Source of the DNA: an uncultured Candidatus Saccharibacteria bacterium
GTDB lineage: Bacteria > Patescibacteriota > Minisyncoccia > Phycocordibacterales > UBA2100
NCBI GenBank assembly: GCA_964584225.1
Contig: CAZOZG010000001.1
Location: 21,652 to 85,651, forward strand
Length of the DNA stretch: 64,000 nucleotides
Direction: 5' to 3'
Shown: positions 3,516-64,000 of the stretch, piece after piece
Layout: each line of letters begins with the position of its first letter
Numbering within the stretch: the first letter of the stretch is position 1
Position numbers and translations under genes: made by a program
Notes under the pieces: generated by a model
Seen by the model: only the letters and a program-made list of their open reading frames with translations
The model's database searches: none
Told to the model about the DNA's origin: nothing

Positions 3516-3943
3516 AGTCCGTCAAAACGAAAAACATCAAGCAAGTCGTGCTGTTCAAAGCGTCACCCCGTGAGCTCTATGCGATGCTCATGGATTCCAA
3601 AAGTCACGCGAAATTTACGGGCGAGAGCGCAAAGATGAGCAAAAAGATTGGCGCGAAATTTACCGCCTACGGCGGCTACATCACCGGCAAAAATCTCAAG
3701 CTGAAGCCCAGTCGCTTGATCGTCCAGGAGTGGCACATGAAAGGCTGGCCCACTGGCCACGCATCGAAAGTGATGTTTCTTTTCACAAAGACGAAAGATG
3801 GCACGAAGCTCACCTTTGGTCACACCGGCGTGCCTGCGACTAGCTACAAAGGCATCAACAGTGGGTGGAAGGAATCGTATTGGGACAAAATGAAAGTTGC
3901 GCTTGGCGAAAAGAAGGCGTCGAAGAAAAAGCGAGCCATGTAG
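3512..3943 (+). CDS. SRPBCC/Aha1-like (activator of Hsp90 ATPase homolog) domain protein
   Basis: 143-aa ORF overlapping the upstream stop by ATGA. Sequence pattern (ELYAMLMDSKSHAKFTG...GGYITGKNLKLKPSRLIVQEW) is typical of the AHSA1/SRPBCC family. Confidence 0.5.
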   Translation: MKSVKTKNIKQVVLFKASPRELYAMLMDSKSHAKFTGESAKMSKKIGAKFTAYGGYITGKNLKLKPSRLIVQEWHMKGWPTGHASKVMFLFTKTKDGTKLTFGHTGVPATSYKGINSGWKESYWDKMKVALGEKKASKKKRAM

Positions 3944-3986
3944 CTCCAGTCGTAGCGAGATTTCGCACAAAGATTTGAGCGAAGAC

Positions 3987-4017
3987 AGCCCGCCTGATGG
4001 CGGGTTTTCTGATTTTG
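3987..4017 (+). terminator. rho-independent terminator (agcccgcc-tgat-ggcgggtttt)
   Basis: Hairpin plus T-tract after 3943. Confidence 0.55.
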
Positions 4018-5331: not shown

Positions 5332-5441
5332 GGTGAATCCACGAACATACCAAAAGGCATCGCCCCGCGCGCATGCCTTTTGTTTTTTTTCAATAACGCA
5401 CTAAAATCGTCGCTTAAGCGAAGAGGGAAGCCTCTTTCAAG

Positions 5442-5468
5442 AAAACCCGCCGCAAGGCGGGTTTTCTA
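5442..5468 (+). terminator. rho-independent terminator, repeat of the 2158 hairpin
   Basis: aaaacccgccgcaaggcgggtttt; lies between the two S1 peptidase genes. Confidence 0.55.
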
Positions 5469-54878: not shown

Positions 54879-54961
54879 CTTTAGTCTCCACGTTTCTAGC
54901 GGCACAGTACTCTATGTGTTTCCCGAAAGCAAAACCACCGCGACTGTCCACAGGGCAGTGC

Positions 54962-54991
54962 TTGACAGGTGGACCATGGTTCACCTATACT
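54962..54991 (+). promoter_or_regulatory. lexA promoter TTGACA-18-TATACT with embedded palindrome GTGGACCATGGTTCAC (Cheo-box-like GGAC-N4-GTTC)
   Basis: Near-consensus sigma70 hexamers; palindromic operator in the spacer; ATG 4 nt after the -10. Confidence 0.5.
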
Positions 54992-54994
54992 GAG

Positions 54995-55567
54995 ATGGCC
55001 ATGTATGAGGAGTATAAAAAGAAATTTCTGGCGTTTTATGAAAAGAGTGGGCGTATGCCCGGCTACGCGGAGACGATGGCATTCACGGGTTTTAGATCCA
55101 AGAACGCTGTGTTCAAACTTATCAGTCGACTTGTGGAGGAAGGAGTTCTCCGAAAAGACGCCCGAGGACGACTTTCCCCCGGTGCATTCGGACAGGGCAT
55201 TCGACTGCTTGGTTTGGTCGAGGCAGGATTTCCGTCGGCGGCCGAAGAAGAGCTTTTGGACACGATCGATTTTGATGAGTACCTGACGCCGAATAAAGAG
55301 TCGAGCTACATTTTGAAAGTAAAGGGTGATTCGATGATTGAGGCTGGTATCCAGCCGGGAGACATGGTGATTGTCGAGCGCAAAGCCAATTACAAGCCCG
55401 GGCAGATCGTCATCGCACAGGTAGACAGCGAGTACACGATGAAGTATTTGCGCAAAAAAGGCGATCGCTACTACCTCGAGCCGGCCAATGCGAAGTACAA
55501 GCCGATTTATCCGAAGGAAGCATTCAGCGTCGAGGCAGTCGTCACGGCGGTAGTTAGAAAGTACTAA
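54995..55567 (+). CDS. lexA: LexA repressor (S24 peptidase)
   Basis: N-terminal wHTH; C-terminal KVKGDSMIEAGI (Ser) and K-containing catalytic region. Confidence 0.85.
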   Translation: MAMYEEYKKKFLAFYEKSGRMPGYAETMAFTGFRSKNAVFKLISRLVEEGVLRKDARGRLSPGAFGQGIRLLGLVEAGFPSAAEEELLDTIDFDEYLTPNKESSYILKVKGDSMIEAGIQPGDMVIVERKANYKPGQIVIAQVDSEYTMKYLRKKGDRYYLEPANAKYKPIYPKEAFSVEAVVTAVVRKY

Positions 55568-55569
55568 CT

Positions 55570-56874
55570 ATGTGGGGATCTCCTCGAAATTTTCCAAGAG
55601 CGATTTTGCACGTCGACGGTGACTCTTTCTTCGCAGCAGTCGAAGTTGCGAAGAACCCATCGTTACGTGGCAAGCCCGTGATTACCGGCAAAGAGCGCGG
55701 CATCGTTTCCGCATGCACGTACGAAGCAAAAGCCCGCGGTGTGAAGCGCGGCGTGAAGTTGTCCGAAGCGCTGAAGGCCTGTCCCGACGCGATTGTGTTG
55801 CCCTCTGATTACGAAACGTACTCGCTCTTCTCGGAGCGCATGTACGAAATCGTGCGGCGCTACACCCCCGACGTAGAAGAGTATTCGATTGATGAATGTT
55901 TCGCGGATCTTACCGGTATGCGCCGCGTCAATCACATGGGCTACAGGGATATGGCACTCGAAATTCGGCAGAAGTTGAAGATCGAGCTGGGGATGACATT
56001 TTCCGTCGGTCTTTCGGCGACAAAAGTCTTGGCAAAAGTCGCGTCGAAGTGGGATAAACCCGACGGCTTCACCGTGATTCCAGTCGATGAGGCGCCAAAA
56101 TTTCTTGCGAAAATTCCCGCATTCAAAGTCTGGGGAATCGGCCACAACACTGCCGCCTATCTCGAAAAATTCGGCATCCGCACAGCGCTCGACCTCGCGC
56201 GGCGCGATGATGCGTGGGTACGCGCGAATCTCTCGAAGCCATTTTATGAACTGTGGCACGAGTTGAACGGTCGGGTTGTCTTCCAACTCGCAACTGAAAA
56301 GAGGGAGACCTATCAATCCATTAGCAAGACGAAGACGTTTACGCCGCCGTCGCGTGATCAGCATTTCATCTTTTCGCAGCTATCAAAAAATATCGAAAAT
56401 GCGTGCATCAAGGCGCGTCGCTGGAATCTTGCGACCAAAGAGATTTTCTTTTTCCTCAAGACGCAAGATTTCAAATATCATGGGTTTGAGATCAAGTTGC
56501 CGCATCTCACCTCAATCCCGCAGGATATTGTGCGCGAAGTGAAGCGTTTTTACTCGCAGGTGTATCACAAGGGCACGCTGTATCGAGCAACTGGCATCAC
56601 GCTTTTGAAATTGCGAGATGCCGACGAAGCACAGCTCGATCTTTTTGGTGCCGTACAAAAATCGGAGGGAATGAAGCTTGTGTTCAAAAGTGTAGACGAA
56701 ATTTCCGAACGCTACGGCAAGCACGCCGTGTTCTTGGGTTCGAGTTTTGAAGCGATGAAATTCGGCGCGCACCTTGGCTCACGAGGCGACACGCCCGCGC
56801 GCACCAAAGAGCTTTTCAAAGGGGAGACGTCTCGCCGACGGCTCGCGATTCCATCGCTCGGAGAGATTGATTGA
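55570..56874 (+). CDS. dinB: Y-family DNA polymerase (DinB/UmuC-like)
   Basis: ILHVDGDSFFAAVE and SIDECFADLTG catalytic motifs; translationally coupled to lexA. Confidence 0.85.
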   Translation: MWGSPRNFPRAILHVDGDSFFAAVEVAKNPSLRGKPVITGKERGIVSACTYEAKARGVKRGVKLSEALKACPDAIVLPSDYETYSLFSERMYEIVRRYTPDVEEYSIDECFADLTGMRRVNHMGYRDMALEIRQKLKIELGMTFSVGLSATKVLAKVASKWDKPDGFTVIPVDEAPKFLAKIPAFKVWGIGHNTAAYLEKFGIRTALDLARRDDAWVRANLSKPFYELWHELNGRVVFQLATEKRETYQSISKTKTFTPPSRDQHFIFSQLSKNIENACIKARRWNLATKEIFFFLKTQDFKYHGFEIKLPHLTSIPQDIVREVKRFYSQVYHKGTLYRATGITLLKLRDADEAQLDLFGAVQKSEGMKLVFKSVDEISERYGKHAVFLGSSFEAMKFGAHLGSRGDTPARTKELFKGETSRRRLAIPSLGEID

Positions 56875-57512
56875 GCGTGTACAATGAGCTCATGAATAAG
56901 AACCGACTCGAAGCCCTGTCGGACGGTGTGTTCTCCATTGTGATGACGCTTCTCATTTTCAACATCGCAGTTCCGACGATTCAGGGCACACCGACGGACG
57001 CAGCAGTTCTCCAGGATCTGCTGAAGCTTTGGCCCCTCTTGGCGAGCTACTTCACCAGTTTCGCCGTACTCGCGATGTTCTGGATCTCGCACAACTTTTT
57101 CTATCATTCATTCACGCTTGAGGTGAATCGAAAGCTGGTACTCCTCAACATGCTCTACCTATCGCTTCTCGCGTTGATTCCGTTTTCGACACGGCTTCTT
57201 GGTCAGTACGAAGATGTGCGCATCGCAGTTTTGGTGTACGGGCTGAATGTGTTTCTCATCGGTATTGTCGCGACATTCGTGTTGCATTATGCAATCTATT
57301 CGCATGAGATCGACATAAGCCACATCGAGCCGCGTCTGCTGCGGCAAGCTCGCGTGCGCTCGCTGATTACGCCGACTTTTGCCGCGATCGGCATCATCGC
57401 GGCATACTTTTCGACGCCGCTCGCACTTTTGTGTTTTGCATTCCCGGTCGTTTTCAATCTCGTGCCCGGCATGCTCAATTTCGCCGAGCAAATCTTTGGG
57501 TTTACGCTCTAA
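56871..57512 (+). CDS. TMEM175/DUF1211-like putative K+ channel, copy 2
   Basis: RLEALSDGVFSIVMTLLIFNI signature; paralog of 9373-9990. Confidence 0.6.
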   Translation: MSVYNELMNKNRLEALSDGVFSIVMTLLIFNIAVPTIQGTPTDAAVLQDLLKLWPLLASYFTSFAVLAMFWISHNFFYHSFTLEVNRKLVLLNMLYLSLLALIPFSTRLLGQYEDVRIAVLVYGLNVFLIGIVATFVLHYAIYSHEIDISHIEPRLLRQARVRSLITPTFAAIGIIAAYFSTPLALLCFAFPVVFNLVPGMLNFAEQIFGFTL

Positions 57513-57517
57513 AAAAG

Positions 57518-57552
57518 AAACCGCCGCGGCTTGCGGGCCGCGGCGGGTTTGC
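57518..57552. terminator. hairpin aaaccgccgcggc-ttgc-gggccgcggcgggttt (bidirectional)
   Basis: GC-rich stem with A- and T-runs on either side. Confidence 0.55.
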
Positions 57553-57563
57553 TGTAAGAGCAA

Positions 57564-57836
57564 CTACGTCACGAGTTTGACGGCAACGAATGACGGCCAT
57601 CGTTTGTTCCACGGTCCGTAGTGTAGATTAATTGCGTCGTCGAAATCTTTGCCGATCGTGTGGAAGAGCGTACGTGCGTTGACACACACAGTCTTACCAG
57701 GATGATCATGTGTCAGTCGCTTCTGATGCGCATTGAGCCACACATCGGCATTAGCGAATACCATGGTCTTCGTGATAGACCACGGACGTATCGCGTCCAT
57801 TTCTTCCTCAGTGAGGCCTTTCAGTTCAAAGATCAT
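57564..57836 (-). CDS. hypothetical protein (90 aa)
   Basis: ggagaaccc SD before the ATG at 57836. Confidence 0.35.
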   Translation of the reverse strand: MIFELKGLTEEEMDAIRPWSITKTMVFANADVWLNAHQKRLTHDHPGKTVCVNARTLFHTIGKDFDDAINLHYGPWNKRWPSFVAVKLVT

Positions 57837-57971
57837 GGGTTCTCCTTTTTCCGGACAGTGAGCGAGTCTGAACAAATTCAGAGTCGGTCGCTATCTAAAG
57901 TTAGCGTGCTGGTGGCGCCGCAGAGTACTGCGGCATCCTACAAAAATATAGTCGCTTCGCTTCTTATTTTT

Positions 57972-58365
57972 GTGGAGATGGAGGGAATTGCACCCTCGTC
58001 CAGAGAAGGGAAGATGTATGCTTCTACACAGCGTAGATCATCTTGAAGTTTTAAATCACGTACCTAAAAGATGAACGAAACGGTACGCGATCGAGCTCGT
58101 TGTCTCGGAAATCTGCTGAGCAGACAGAATTCCATGCTTGAGATTTGTTACGCCCGGCGGAAATTAATCAAGCATCATCTCCGTGGACGGCGCTTAGGCT
58201 ACGAGAGCGTAAGCGGGCTGCAGGTCCGCCAATTGAATTGGCGAGAGTACTGCACGTGCTACTTTGTTCGCACTTAGTTTTGAGGCAGTTTCGAAAGATG
58301 CCCCAACTTTGTTGTGCACATACAAAATCCTATTTCCCTGTCGAAACTGATCATCCCCCACCTCC
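57972..58365 (-). ncRNA. ssrA: tmRNA (SsrA), about 392 nt, standard (non-permuted)
   Basis: 5' GGAGGUGGGGGAUGAUCAGUUUCGACAGGG matches the GGGGnnG...GAUUCGACGGG tmRNA consensus. The 3' end is a T-arm-like GAGGGUGCAAUUCCCUC followed by CAUCUCC-A, which pairs perfectly with the 5' GGAGGUG. An internal frame SPIQLADLQPAYALVA-UAA is a plausible tag peptide. It lies immediately downstream of smpB. Confidence 0.7.
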
Positions 58366-58465
58366 ACAAAAATAACGAGCCGCAGGCGAGTATATTTTTG
58401 TAGGATGCCGAGCGTATGCGAGGCACCGGCATTTCGTTTTGGAAGTGGCGAATGACCACAACAGG

Positions 58466-58930
58466 TCAATCTTTCAAAGTGCGTTCGATGCGGCGTTTCT
58501 CTTCACGCGCTCGGATAGTATGACGTTTATCTTCCTTTTTCTTTCCGCGCGCAATGGCGATCGAGAGTTTCAGTTTTCGACCTTTATTGTAGACCTTAAT
58601 CGGCACGATTGTCAAGCCCTTTTGGCCTTCAGCTGAAGCCACATGTGCGATTTCTTTCTCTGTGAGAAGAAGCCGACGCGTTCGTTCTGCGTCGTAACTC
58701 TTTGGGGTGTTATTCGTTTGCCATGGTGGAATCGATGCGCCGACGAGGTACACCTCGCCACCGCGTGCGACGACGTGCGCACCTTTGAGGGAGCCGTGTC
58801 CGGCTCGAAGCGACTTCACTTCAAGTCCAAGCAATTCCAGACCCGCCTCCATCGTTTCAATGATCGAGTAGTCGAAGCTGACGCGGCTATTTTCCACCAG
58901 CGACATGTCGCTCACTATACCCCGCACCAC
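58466..58930 (-). CDS. smpB: SsrA-binding protein SmpB
   Basis: 154 aa; FDYSIIETMEAGLELLGLEVKSLR...RTRRLLL core. Confidence 0.9.
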   Translation of the reverse strand: MVRGIVSDMSLVENSRVSFDYSIIETMEAGLELLGLEVKSLRAGHGSLKGAHVVARGGEVYLVGASIPPWQTNNTPKSYDAERTRRLLLTEKEIAHVASAEGQKGLTIVPIKVYNKGRKLKLSIAIARGKKKEDKRHTIRAREEKRRIERTLKD

Positions 58931-59073
58931 TTTTTACAGAAAGAGGGTTTGAACGTGCAACGGTCGTACGGATACTGTTTGTTGTATAGATTGATGAGTT
59001 GGACGTGAAGAATGTGCCGCAGCAACGGCGTTTTTTCTTTTATAATCAGGCGTTTTATGTATAATGCCTTCTC

Positions 59074-60990
59074 ATGAGTGACGGAAATCAGAAACAACGA
59101 CGCGCACCAAAATCCCCGCGCGGACCGTCCACAGGTCCATCGTTGTGGATGCAGCTTGCAATTGCGTTTGCAGTCTTTTTGCTTCTTTCTGCCGCGTATT
59201 CGCTTCTTAGAGATTACGTCGTGAACCAACAAGAATCCGTTCCACTTTCGCAAATTGCCACCGACATCGTGGGCGCCAAGATCACGTCGATCACGATTGA
59301 AGGTGATTCGATCACTGCGACCTACACCGATAAGACAGAAAAGACTTCTCGCAAGGAAACTGAGAGCTCACTCACCGACACGCTCAAAAATTACGGTCTC
59401 ACGCCTGAGCAAATCGACGGCGTAAAAATCGAAGTCAAAGACGAAAGTGGCGTCCGGTTTTGGTTTCTCACGCTCGCTCCGCTGATTCTTCCGATCATCA
59501 TGATTTTTGCGCTGATCTGGTATCTCTCGCGCCAAATGCGAGGTGCGGGCATGCAAGCGTTTACTTTCGGTCGTTCGATGGCGCGCCTCACAAATCCGGA
59601 AGATACGGTGCAACGAGTCACTTTTGCCGACGTTGCCGGTGCCAAGGAAGCGAAAGCCGAGCTTTTGGAAATCGTCGACTTTCTTAAAAATCCGAAAAAA
59701 TTTATCCAAATCGGCGCGCGTATTCCAAAAGGCGTGCTTTTGATGGGAGCGCCAGGGACGGGGAAGACTTTGCTTGCGCGCGCGGTCGCCGGTGAAGCCG
59801 GCGTGCCGTTCTTCTCAATCTCGGGCTCTGAATTTGTCGAAATGTTTGTCGGTGTCGGTGCTTCGCGTGTGCGCGACCTCTTTCAGACAGCGAAAAAAGC
59901 ATCGCCCGCGATTGTCTTCCTTGATGAAATCGATGCCGTCGGACGCGTCCGCGGCACGGGCGTTGGTGGTGGCAATGACGAACGCGAACAAACACTGAAC
60001 CAGATTCTTGTCGAAATGGACGGCTTCGAGCCGAATGAAAAAGTCATTGTGATGGCAGCAACCAATCGCCCGGACGTGCTTGATCCCGCGCTCGTGCGTC
60101 CCGGCCGTTTCGATCGCCGTGTCGTCATTGATTTGCCGGATCGAAAAGATCGCGAAGATATTTTGAATGTGCACGCACGTACGAAACCGCTCGGGCCGGA
60201 TGTGAAGCTCTCAGTGATTGCCGAGCGCACGCCTGGTTTCTCTGGTGCGGACCTCGCGAATCTCATGAACGAAGGCGCGATTCTTGCTGCGCGCGAAGAT
60301 CGCAAAGAGGTGACGCAATTCGATCTCATCCGCTCGATCGAGAAAGTGATGCTCGGGCCCGAACGTCGCTCGCATGTTTTGAACGAAAAAGAAAAGAAGA
60401 TCACGGCGTATCACGAAGCCGGGCACGCGCTCGTCGCTTCTGTCTTACCGCACGCCGATCCGGTGCATAAAATTTCTATCATTTCGCGTGGCCGTGCGGC
60501 AGGATACACGCTGAAACTCCCATTTGAAGATCGACGCATGCAGTCGCGACTCGAATTCCTCGACGATATCGCCGTATCACTCGGCGGCTACCTTGCTGAA
60601 AAAATGATATTCGACGACGTCACGACGGGTGCTTCCAACGATCTCCAGGTACTCTCAGCGCTCGCGCGCGACATGGTCACGCGCTACGGCATGAGCGAAA
60701 AAATGGGACCAGTTGCATTCGACGCAGCACAGGGGCGCACAATGTTTGGTTCAGGACTCGAAGGTGGCGAACAATCAGAGCAGGTCGCCGCGCAAATCGA
60801 CGAAGAGGTGAAACACATCGTCGACGGCGCACACAAGCGCGCGGACGCAGTATTGAAAAAACATCGCAAAGCACTCGACGCCATCGCCGAGCGCCTCATC
60901 GAAGTTGAAACCATCGAGCGCGAAGAGTTTGAGCAAATACTCTTGGGCAACGGCATCGTCCCGAAGAAAAAAGAAGAGCGCGACGCCTAA
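59074..60990 (+). CDS. ftsH: ATP-dependent zinc metalloprotease FtsH
   Basis: 2 TM; AAA+ GAPGTGKT and DEID motifs; SRH; HEAGHAL zinc motif. Confidence 0.95.
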
Positions 60991-63757: not shown

Positions 63758-63830
63758 GCGCCCGTAGCTCAACGGTTAGAGCACAGAGCTTATACCTCTG
63801 GGGTTCCTGGTTCGAATCCAGGCGGGCGTA
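63758..63830 (+). tRNA. tRNA with anticodon UAU (reads AUA; tRNA-Ile by anticodon)
   Basis: Manual cloverleaf: acceptor GCGCCCG/CGGGCGU (G1-U72 wobble); D arm GCTC-AACGGTTA-GAGC; anticodon arm CAGAG-CTTATAC-CTCTG; variable loop GGGTT; T arm CCTGG-TTCGAAT-CCAGG; discriminator A; CCA not encoded. TATAAT at 63744-63749. Confidence 0.8.
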
Positions 63831-63872
63831 CATGAAACAAAATAGTGCCTACGCACTGTTTTGTTTCATGTA
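63831..63872 (+). terminator. long hairpin catgaaacaaaatagtgc-ctac-gcactgttttgtttcatg after the tRNA
   Basis: About 18-bp nearly perfect stem directly after the tRNA 3' end. Confidence 0.55.
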
Positions 63873-64000
63873 CGAGGCGGAGCGATGCGAGCCGCAGCGG
63901 CGGCGAACCGCGAGCCGGGGTCGCGGAATTTTTTCCGCTACGGCGGACGAAATATCCGTGACTAGAGACGTGATACGATGCGTCGATGGAAATTACGACG

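Follow-up and report, generated by a model that had tools for sequence, protein, structure and literature searches.

The transfer-messenger RNA (tmRNA) gene ssrA in the 64,000-nucleotide (nt) stretch of contig CAZOZG010000001.1 analyzed here (hereafter the window) lies on the minus strand directly after smpB and is bracketed by inverted repeats that make its leader complementary to its trailer. These repeats are two opposite-facing copies of one two-hairpin module, of which the upstream copy is inverted and sits in the apex of a conserved leader hairpin. SmpB of this organism is 80-86% identical to the SmpB proteins of Candidatus Kaiserbacteria (metagenome-assembled genomes), which identifies it as an uncultured Kaiserbacteria-like member of Patescibacteria (candidate phyla radiation, CPR); in Kaiserbacteria, to judge from the loci compared, the module otherwise normally sits only at the ssrA 3' end. 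With a confidence somewhat better than even, we read the bracket as a lineage-specific inverted duplication that does not require leader and trailer to pair into a panhandle, i.e., a long helix enclosing the tmRNA.

The flanking repeats described in the first-pass annotation are real. They comprise arms of 25 nt (96% complementary) and 26 nt (85% complementary), and alignment of the leader with the reverse-complemented trailer gives 20 of 20 identical positions, a diverged 15-nt centre with a 2-nt insertion or deletion (indel), and then 14 of 14 identical positions running into GGAG(G/A)UGG. The 19-nt arm occurs exactly twice in the 64 kb (two or more occurrences in 0 of 100 shuffles), and the hairpin pattern ACAAAAAUA/UAUUUUUGU, a 9-bp AU self-hairpin that allows each flank to fold alone as had been proposed, is found within the window only in the two flanks and never twice in shuffled sequence. 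A contig of the Logan assemblies (L142) is 100% identical over 5.6 kb of the region, but both assemblies may go back to one set of reads; the contig is also present in run SRR12313478.

Read on the opposite strand, the leader insert (CCCCCACCTCCAC-AAAAATAACGAGCCGC...TATATTTTTGT-AGGATGCCGAG...) is the trailer module inverted. Both window copies carry A5/T5 instead of A4/T4, as well as AGGATGCCG, and each retains a different ancestral portion, TAACGAGCCGC in the leader and CGACTATA in the trailer. The shared derived states make the two copies each other's closest relatives, as expected from an intragenomic inverted duplication or from the re-insertion of the same element variant. In L066, which has the nearest tmRNA, a 4-nt loop takes this place at the apex of the leader hairpin.

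The comparison set consisted of ~140 smpB loci collected from genome and metagenome contigs (designated by L numbers), in 100 of which the tmRNA was located. When the 70-nt leader was tested for duplex formation with the acceptor 3' strand plus the 70-nt trailer, the window reached -82 kcal/mol (z = -11), whereas z ranged from -3.2 to +1.9 in 88 non-redundant relatives (42 + 46). The relatives without complementarity include L066, which has the nearest tmRNA (82.9% identity), and the syntenic amidohydrolase-FtsH-SmpB loci L143, L145 and L146. Leader-trailer complementarity is unique to this genome among the ~90 relatives compared, so that the comparison of ssrA flanks in related genomes, which had been suggested as a check, does not support a dedicated processing stem.

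The tmRNA Gene and Its Ends

The gene at 58358-57973 is a bona fide standard one-piece tmRNA, located on the minus strand right after smpB as first annotated. The Rfam covariance model RF00023 matches 58358-57970 (-) over its full length (model positions 1-374 of 374) with 93.3 bits against a gathering score of 47, and ARAGORN independently calls a tmRNA at 58358-57972 (-) with the tag ANKVARAVLSPIQLADLQPAYALVA*, in agreement with the tag frame claimed earlier. The locus thus combines a full-length model match with a 7-bp acceptor stem that includes G3·U70, a T-arm (GAGGG/CCCUC in the Rfam alignment) and a tag frame followed by a stop codon. Its acceptor stem, GGGGAUG (58358-58352) with CAUCUCC (57980-57974), is paired at seven of seven positions (G1-C, G2-C, G3·U, G4-C, A5-U, U6-A and G7-C).

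The mature 5' end is G58358. Rfam, ARAGORN and every relative (GGGG(G/A)UG) give this same +1, the acceptor register having been checked across 100 loci, and the G3·U pair, a requirement for alanine charging, is obtained only with +1 at this position. The first-pass annotation had placed the 5' end at GGAGGUG, 7 nt upstream, which gives A3-U; its expectation that RF00023 would match the locus was correct, whereas its position for the 5' end was not. GGAGGUG is instead a pseudo-acceptor, and the case illustrates that such a heptamer adjoining the true acceptor can mislead the placing of tmRNA ends by eye. Consequently, the 17-bp continuous helix thought to extend the acceptor (UUAUUUUUGU-GGAGGUG / CAUCUCC-ACAAAAAUAA) uses the leader heptamer and is mutually exclusive with the true acceptor stem. 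The second helix, given as 14 bp, is ~25 bp long instead.

The 3' CCA is not encoded in the gene, in which CAA follows the discriminator A57973, and many relatives also lack it. An encoded CCA is not a defining requirement of the tmRNA family; its absence means that CCA must be added post-transcriptionally. The flank hairpins had further been proposed to act as terminators of smpB and ssrA. Neither was reported by a terminator scan of 57400-59100, and their stems of nine A-U/G-C pairs have weak GC cores and do not amount to the GC stem of at least 5 bp with a U-tract that characterizes intrinsic terminators. A permissive Rfam scan of 57800-58700 returned the tmRNA and sub-threshold noise only, i.e., no known RNA family in the flanks.

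A Conserved Leader Hairpin and Its Apex

In most Kaiserbacteria, the sequence after the smpB stop codon pairs with the last leader bases and tmRNA nt 1-12, forming a hairpin of 20-35 bp that runs through +1 and shows recurrent 1x1 mismatches at tmRNA G2, G5 and A8. According to these pairings, the hairpin would mask the 5' strand of the tmRNA acceptor in the precursor. Adding tmRNA nt 1-14 to the 100-nt leader of the window changes the folding energy by a ΔΔG of -17.9 kcal/mol, a value equalled by 0 of 60 random segments, and the corresponding ΔΔG is significant (p <= 0.05) in 35 of 75 loci. In a gapless register of 24 positions anchored on one pair, at least 18 positions are paired in 49/72 loci, with a paired fraction of 0.741 compared to 0.605 after random exchange of arms among the loci (0.635 at most in 500 permutations). 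Pairing is also maintained through sequence change: leader positions -1 to -10 each show four to seven pair types, and tmRNA positions 10 and 11 undergo compensatory switches (A-U<->G-C and C-G<->U-A) together with the leader. The hairpin spans 39-109 nt (median 48) and 103 nt in the window. Loci that carry it include the window (58348-58458, minus strand), L002, L008, L011, L022, L025, L033, L041, L066, L087, L090 and L146-L148, among others.

Three partners compete for the pseudo-acceptor of the window: CCACUUCC in the 5' arm of the leader, a further leader segment (CAUCCU), and CAUCUCC of the acceptor 3' strand. Of the 49 loci with the hairpin, 13 (L066 among them) carry this heptamer or a similar one ahead of +1. 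Its presence in relatives implies that, before the insert arose, the tmRNA 3' end and the leader/tmRNA junction already formed a short inverted repeat. In L009, L122 and L148 the apex of the leader hairpin is filled by palindromic AAGGTTCGACCTT / AAGGTCGAACCTT repeats, which indicates that the apex accepts insertions repeatedly.

GGAGGUG also equals the consensus Shine-Dalgarno sequence, and an AUG located 4 nt further on (tmRNA nt 5-7) opens a 27-codon frame (MISFDREIGF...) within the open reading frame (ORF) 58274-58459. Chance is the probable cause of this likeness, given that the acceptor 3' strand itself looks like an anti-Shine-Dalgarno sequence.

The Trailer Module and Insertions at tmRNA 3' Ends

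Modules homologous to that of the window follow the tmRNA directly in L081 and L117, and are displaced downstream in L092/L094 and L078/L080. They measure ~85-95 nt (L081:3359-3445, L117:2042-2128, L094:4117-4212, L078:5260-5350) and are patchily distributed among Kaiserbacteria. The module consists of hp1, in which an A-tract and a U-tract enclose a short GC stem-loop, and of the GC hairpin hp2. In these loci the stem sequences of both hairpins are different but the pairing is kept, and direct repeats of the tmRNA end, CTCCAC(AAAA), border the module, after which an ordinary terminator follows. The two-hairpin module of the relatives is possibly a miniature insertion element or an att scar.

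Larger insertions occur at the same place. In L078 and L094, a LAGLIDADG homing-endonuclease gene (Pfam) is inserted right after the tmRNA and ahead of the module, and beyond the gene 22 nt of the tmRNA 3' end are repeated; this is the arrangement of an integrated element with att duplication. The gene occupies L094:3411-3989 (-) and L078:3411-3989 (-), and L078 also has a methyltransferase gene there; in L147 a GIY-YIG ORF (3599-3883) follows the tmRNA. In the sequences compared, the ssrA 3' flank is an insertion hot spot of the clade.

Folding of the trailer back on the acceptor 3' strand was also considered as a clade-wide trait and was rejected, as p <= 0.05 was reached in 8/75 loci and the mean ΔΔG equalled that of the control. 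Trailer blocks of 30-50 nt that start right after the discriminator are common to unrelated genomes. One of them reads ACTGCTTCGCCAAGGCTTCGCAGTGCAAGCAC (L005, L020, L034 and L099, with variants in L016, L022 and L143) and another ACTCGACTCG...CGAGTCGAGTG, which forms a long trailer stem (L003, L029, L033, L095, L146 and L147).

A Putative Promoter Embedded in smpB

The smpB gene encodes a 146-aa product that is identical to a protein on record with the Pfam domain PF01668 (SmpB), and it is separated by 107 nt from the tmRNA gene on the same strand. It contains a sigma-70-type promoter sequence with 11 of 12 consensus positions, from which transcription would start near 58579, ~220 nt ahead of the tmRNA +1. 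Among 67 non-redundant relatives (Paceibacteria loci), Leu at this site is encoded by TTG in every case (67/67; background 24%) and Thr by ACA in 64/67 (background 11%), and all 62 loci with Asn there use AAT for it. Correspondingly, the -35 hexamer TTGACA is present in 64/67 relatives and a -10 element, TATAAT or TACAAT, in 62/67. The codons that overlap the promoter (peptide GLTIVPIKVYN) are thus fixed at synonymous sites. On this conservation, the embedded TTGACA-18-TA(T/C)AAT site is probably the ssrA promoter, giving a leader of ~220 nt, and read-through into ssrA from smpB's own promoter is likely.

The promoter-like site is also kept where ssrA sits 0.5-1.8 kb from smpB. In L019 (4960-5075), L090 and L004, in which the two genes are apart, the leader motif is still preceded by what looks like a leftover of the smpB 3' end (CACATTCCGATACTCAAT), a pattern suggestive of insertions that came between the two genes and duplicated the junction. 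The features of the window are collected in Table 1.

Table 1. Features of the smpB-ssrA region; positions refer to the window.
Feature	Position	Strand	Description
smpB	58466..58906	-	ATG 58906, TGA 58468-58466; alternative upstream GTG start 58930; from the ORF list
Sigma-70-type promoter inside smpB	58586..58615	-	TTGACA 58615-58610, 18-nt spacer, TACAAT 58591-58586; 11/12 consensus (putative)
Leader hairpin 5' arm (UGGUCAUUCGCCACUUCC)	58441..58458	-	Pairs with 58365-58348 (pseudo-acceptor plus tmRNA nt 1-11); 18 positions, one G·G mismatch
Apex insert (inverted copy of trailer module)	58366..58440	-	75 nt, two hairpins (local fold)
Apex hairpin A	58427-58422 / 58409-58404	-	GGUGCC / GGCAUC
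Apex hairpin B	58401-58393 / 58374-58366	-	ACAAAAAUA / UAUUUUUGU
Pseudo-acceptor heptamer	58359..58365	-	GGAGGUG, directly 5' of tmRNA +1
Outer inverted-repeat arm, leader side (CGGCAUCCUACAAAAAUAUACUCGC)	58386..58410	-	25 nt, 96% complementary to 57931-57955
Inner inverted-repeat arm, leader side	58355..58380	-	26 nt, 85% complementary to 57959-57984; spans pseudo-acceptor into tmRNA nt 1-4
Mature tmRNA (ssrA)	57973..58358	-	386 nt including discriminator A57973; Rfam RF00023, ARAGORN
Tag reading frame	58194..58271	-	ANKVARAVLSPIQLADLQPAYALVA plus stop; ARAGORN, gene nt 88-165
Inner inverted-repeat arm, trailer side (ACAAAAAUAAGAAGC)	57959..57984	-	Acceptor 3' strand plus trailer start; pairs with 58380-58355
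Outer inverted-repeat arm, trailer side	57931..57955	-	Pairs with 58410-58386
Trailer module	57917..57973	-	hp1, linker AGGAUGC, hp2
Trailer hp1	57973-57965 / 57948-57940	-	ACAAAAAUA / UAUUUUUGU; A-tract, decayed GC core, U-tract
Trailer hp2	57934-57917	-	GCCGCAG-UACU-CUGCGGC

Folding of the Precursor and Competing Explanations

Fold energies computed for the precursor (58470-57895) with a nearest-neighbour model show that a panhandle of ~45-50 bp is its thermodynamic optimum. The unconstrained minimum free energy (MFE) structure is the leader-trailer panhandle in the pseudo-acceptor register, at -222.9 kcal/mol, and a separate fold of the precursor also returned the panhandle as the unconstrained MFE (-206.6 kcal/mol, z = -11). 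When the native acceptor is forced, the panhandle still forms at -202.7 kcal/mol and leaves GGAGGUG as a 7-nt single strand before +1, which is ~15 kcal/mol better than leader, body and trailer folded separately (-187.6 kcal/mol); forcing the conserved leader helix gives -201.7 kcal/mol. The lowest-energy register disrupts the T-arm, and the leader three-way junction (-47 kcal/mol) forms ~400 nt before the trailer is transcribed.

The inverted duplication could have arisen in the following manner. The last seven leader bases (GGAGGUG) resembled the acceptor 5' strand already in relatives, making the leader/tmRNA junction a short inverted repeat of the tmRNA 3' end, and an inverted copy of the module may then have been seeded at this junction, either by template switching during replication or by re-insertion of the module at the pseudo-target. 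The precursor would probably be transcribed from the promoter inside smpB, or from smpB's own, and it would probably mature by an RNase P cut before G58358, an endonuclease cut after A57973 and subsequent CCA addition. Most likely, the two copies would fold locally during transcription, leaving the panhandle as a dispensable by-product, and formation of local co-transcriptional hairpins is at least as likely as that of the panhandle.

Several points weigh against a duplication of this dispensable kind. With perfect stretches of 11+8 and 10+7 bp, the long-range helices surpass the 9 bp of either local hairpin, and the panhandle is 15-35 kcal/mol more stable than the local folds, an advantage that keeps a functional panhandle among the candidates; the nearest-neighbour folding behind these values ignores tmRNA pseudoknots, SmpB binding and kinetics. 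Additionally, the arms differ by one G/A in ~39 positions, compared to ~6 substitutions plus an indel in the 15-nt centre, and near-unchanged arms beside a diverged centre are the pattern expected of selection on pairing, be it local or long-range. The comparison reaches relatives of at most 85-86% SmpB identity, too distant to date the duplication or to gauge selection on the repeat: besides the organism's own record, no relative exceeding 86% was found in genome contigs, metagenome contigs or a collection of 5.8 billion proteins. Finally, we infer that the promoter is used, where RNase P and the 3' endonuclease cut, and by which mechanism the second copy originated.

It is possible, if unlikely, that the bracket is instead a functional processing stem similar to those of rRNA, in which a panhandle of ~25 bp + 17 bp is cut by RNase III. 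Such a cut would release a short-tailed pre-tmRNA and free its 5' end from the leader hairpin, after which RNase P, a 3' endonuclease and the CCA-adding enzyme would finish the ends. The first-pass annotation had proposed a precursor-processing stem of this kind, and the folds given above make it physically plausible, the panhandle being the MFE structure; it finds no support in the comparison with relatives, and it does not extend the acceptor helix. The leader-trailer complementarity does exceed 20 bp and encloses the mature RNA (25 nt at 96% and 26 nt at 85%), its arms have been kept while the centre diverged, and it is compatible with the native acceptor, in which case the single-stranded GGAGGUG would suit RNase P. 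Additionally, tmRNA nt 1-12 of relatives lie in 20-35-bp hairpins that a 7-bp acceptor stem cannot displace, and 5' ends locked in this way make a double-strand-specific maturation step plausible clade-wide. On the other hand, the panhandle is absent from all ~90 relatives, including the closest, so that neither conservation nor covariation speaks for it and it is not a requirement kept across the clade. In its best register, the pseudo-acceptor takes up the acceptor 3' strand and the helix reaches into the T-arm, such that a cut there would damage the mature 3' end. Folding during transcription favours the leader three-way junction and the local hairpins, formed long before the trailer. A search of the 64-kb window, which is part of the genome, in six-frame translation gave no RNase III signature; a loose pattern for RnpA gave chance matches only in the same translation. 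A bolder version, which we regard as rather unlikely, holds that Kaiserbacteria mask the tmRNA 5' strand deliberately and need a double-strand cut to expose it, and that in this genome the inverted copy turned the hairpin into an rRNA-style panhandle, excised by RNase III before RNase P and CCA addition.

A footprint of a mobile element, also raised in the first-pass annotation, seems improbable as the origin of the bracket. According to this explanation, the tmRNA 3' end (CACCUCCAC/AAAA) is the target of a miniature element, either mobile or derived from an att site, and the leader/tmRNA junction, which mimics this target on the opposite strand (CCCCCACCTCC), received a second copy in inverted orientation. 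In agreement with it, the module recurs patchily (the window, L081, L117, L092/94 and L078/80) and is missing from the nearest tmRNA relative, direct repeats CTCCAC(AAAA) bound it in other loci, the tmRNA 3' flank is a hot spot for endonuclease genes (LAGLIDADG in L078/L094 and the GIY-YIG ORF in L147), and the window leader, when reverse-complemented, gives CCCCCACCTCCAC-AAAAATAACGAG, which looks like a tmRNA 3' end with the module behind it. These indications are indirect, and the window itself lacks both a direct repeat and an integrase or endonuclease. Allowing <=3 mismatches, the window contains the 20-mer of the tmRNA 3' end a single time, with 58 kb downstream covered, i.e., there is no second direct copy, and no clear target duplication accompanies the leader copy. 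No recombinase, integrase or endonuclease gene lies near ssrA in the window, where the neighbours are FtsH, SmpB, a 90-aa ORF, TMEM175 and DinB. Compared with miniature inverted-repeat transposable elements (MITEs), the module has only two copies in the 64 kb, which is one stretch of the genome, and its direct-repeat bounds are seen in other genomes; exact-pattern scans gave 0 matches in viral contigs. The lineage-specific derived states shared by the window copies fit local duplication at least as well.

An assembly or amplification artefact (fold-back chimera), or an invertible DNA segment flanked by the inverted repeats, is very improbable. Metagenomic DNA that has been amplified or misassembled can yield chimeras with inverted duplications, and inverted repeats of 20-25 bp can mediate inversion. 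However, the copies differ in their centre and by an indel, the tmRNA between them is intact, full-scoring and syntenic with smpB as in all relatives, the leader insert lies within an otherwise intact conserved hairpin, and the separate Logan assembly record is identical. As for an inversion switch, the gene orientation is canonical, and the inverted state would part ssrA from its leader and promoter. Altogether, the repeat is a statistically solid oddity of a single genome, explained most simply as an inverted duplication, and a variant on known leader-trailer architectures.

Comparison With Known Systems

The RNase III stems of rRNA operons offer the closest geometry: as in the window, 5' and 3' flanks complementary over >20 bp enclose the mature RNA, whose ends lie near the helix base. 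Unlike these stems, which are conserved and covary across species, the tmRNA panhandle exists in a single genome, stems from an inverted copy of the trailer module and, in its best register, competes with the mature acceptor. The likeness is therefore one of geometry only.

In Escherichia coli, RNase P matures the 5' end of pre-tmRNA (RNase P review PMC3985003). Like the canonical E. coli precursor, the RNA of the window is one-piece, has a tRNA-like domain with G3·U and a tag frame, and is encoded next door to smpB, and RNase P is expected to act at G58358. Endo- and exonucleases generate the 3' end of the E. coli precursor. The window RNA departs from the canonical precursor in that CCA is unencoded, its leader would be ~220 nt long if the embedded promoter is used, its 5' strand is predicted to be masked, and it carries an inverted trailer copy.

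The modules of the relatives, bounded by direct repeats of the terminal bases of tmRNA, resemble genomic islands at tmRNA 3' ends. In contrast to such islands, the repeats of the window are inverted and bracket the gene, with neither a direct copy of the 3' end nor a recombinase nearby. The layout of hp1 is also similar to that of bidirectional terminators (A-tract, stem, U-tract), and a proper GC stem is present in L094, L117 and L081; unlike these terminators, the GC cores are decayed in both copies of the window, neither copy passes the terminator scan, and the leader copy lies between the putative promoter and the RNA whose transcription it would end. In the literature searched, no description was found of pre-tmRNA leader hairpins or panhandles, of a promoter within the smpB reading frame, of an rRNA-like processing stem for tmRNA, or of tmRNA processing in Patescibacteria.

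Surrounding Sequence

Downstream of ssrA lie genes for a LexA-like repressor (54914-55567), a DinB-type polymerase (55570-56874) and a TMEM175-family channel (56871-57512), and the 90-aa ORF that adjoins ssrA (57836-57564) has no Pfam match. Within 63758-63874 (plus strand), a tRNA-Ile gene (anticodon UAU) is followed by a 22-bp A-tract/U-tract hairpin (63827-63848 / 63853-63874), the stem of which takes in the last 4 nt of the tRNA and which resembles the layout of the trailer hp1; the same tRNA-Ile is found near smpB in L035/L036. Three near-identical terminator-like palindromes (AGAAAACCCGCC-GCAA-GGCGGGTTTTCT) occur in the window at 2151-2183, 3983-4015 and 5440-5467, spaced 1.4-1.8 kb apart.

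Implications

If the panhandle is used, the window would provide the first demonstrated case of a tmRNA released by way of an rRNA-like leader-trailer stem, and it would show how an inverted duplication can give rise to a new processing architecture in one step. The leader hairpin that would mask the tmRNA 5' end and the putative promoter hidden in the smpB reading frame are features of CPR pre-tmRNAs that hold even if the panhandle goes unused. These clade-wide features arguably outweigh the repeat itself in significance.

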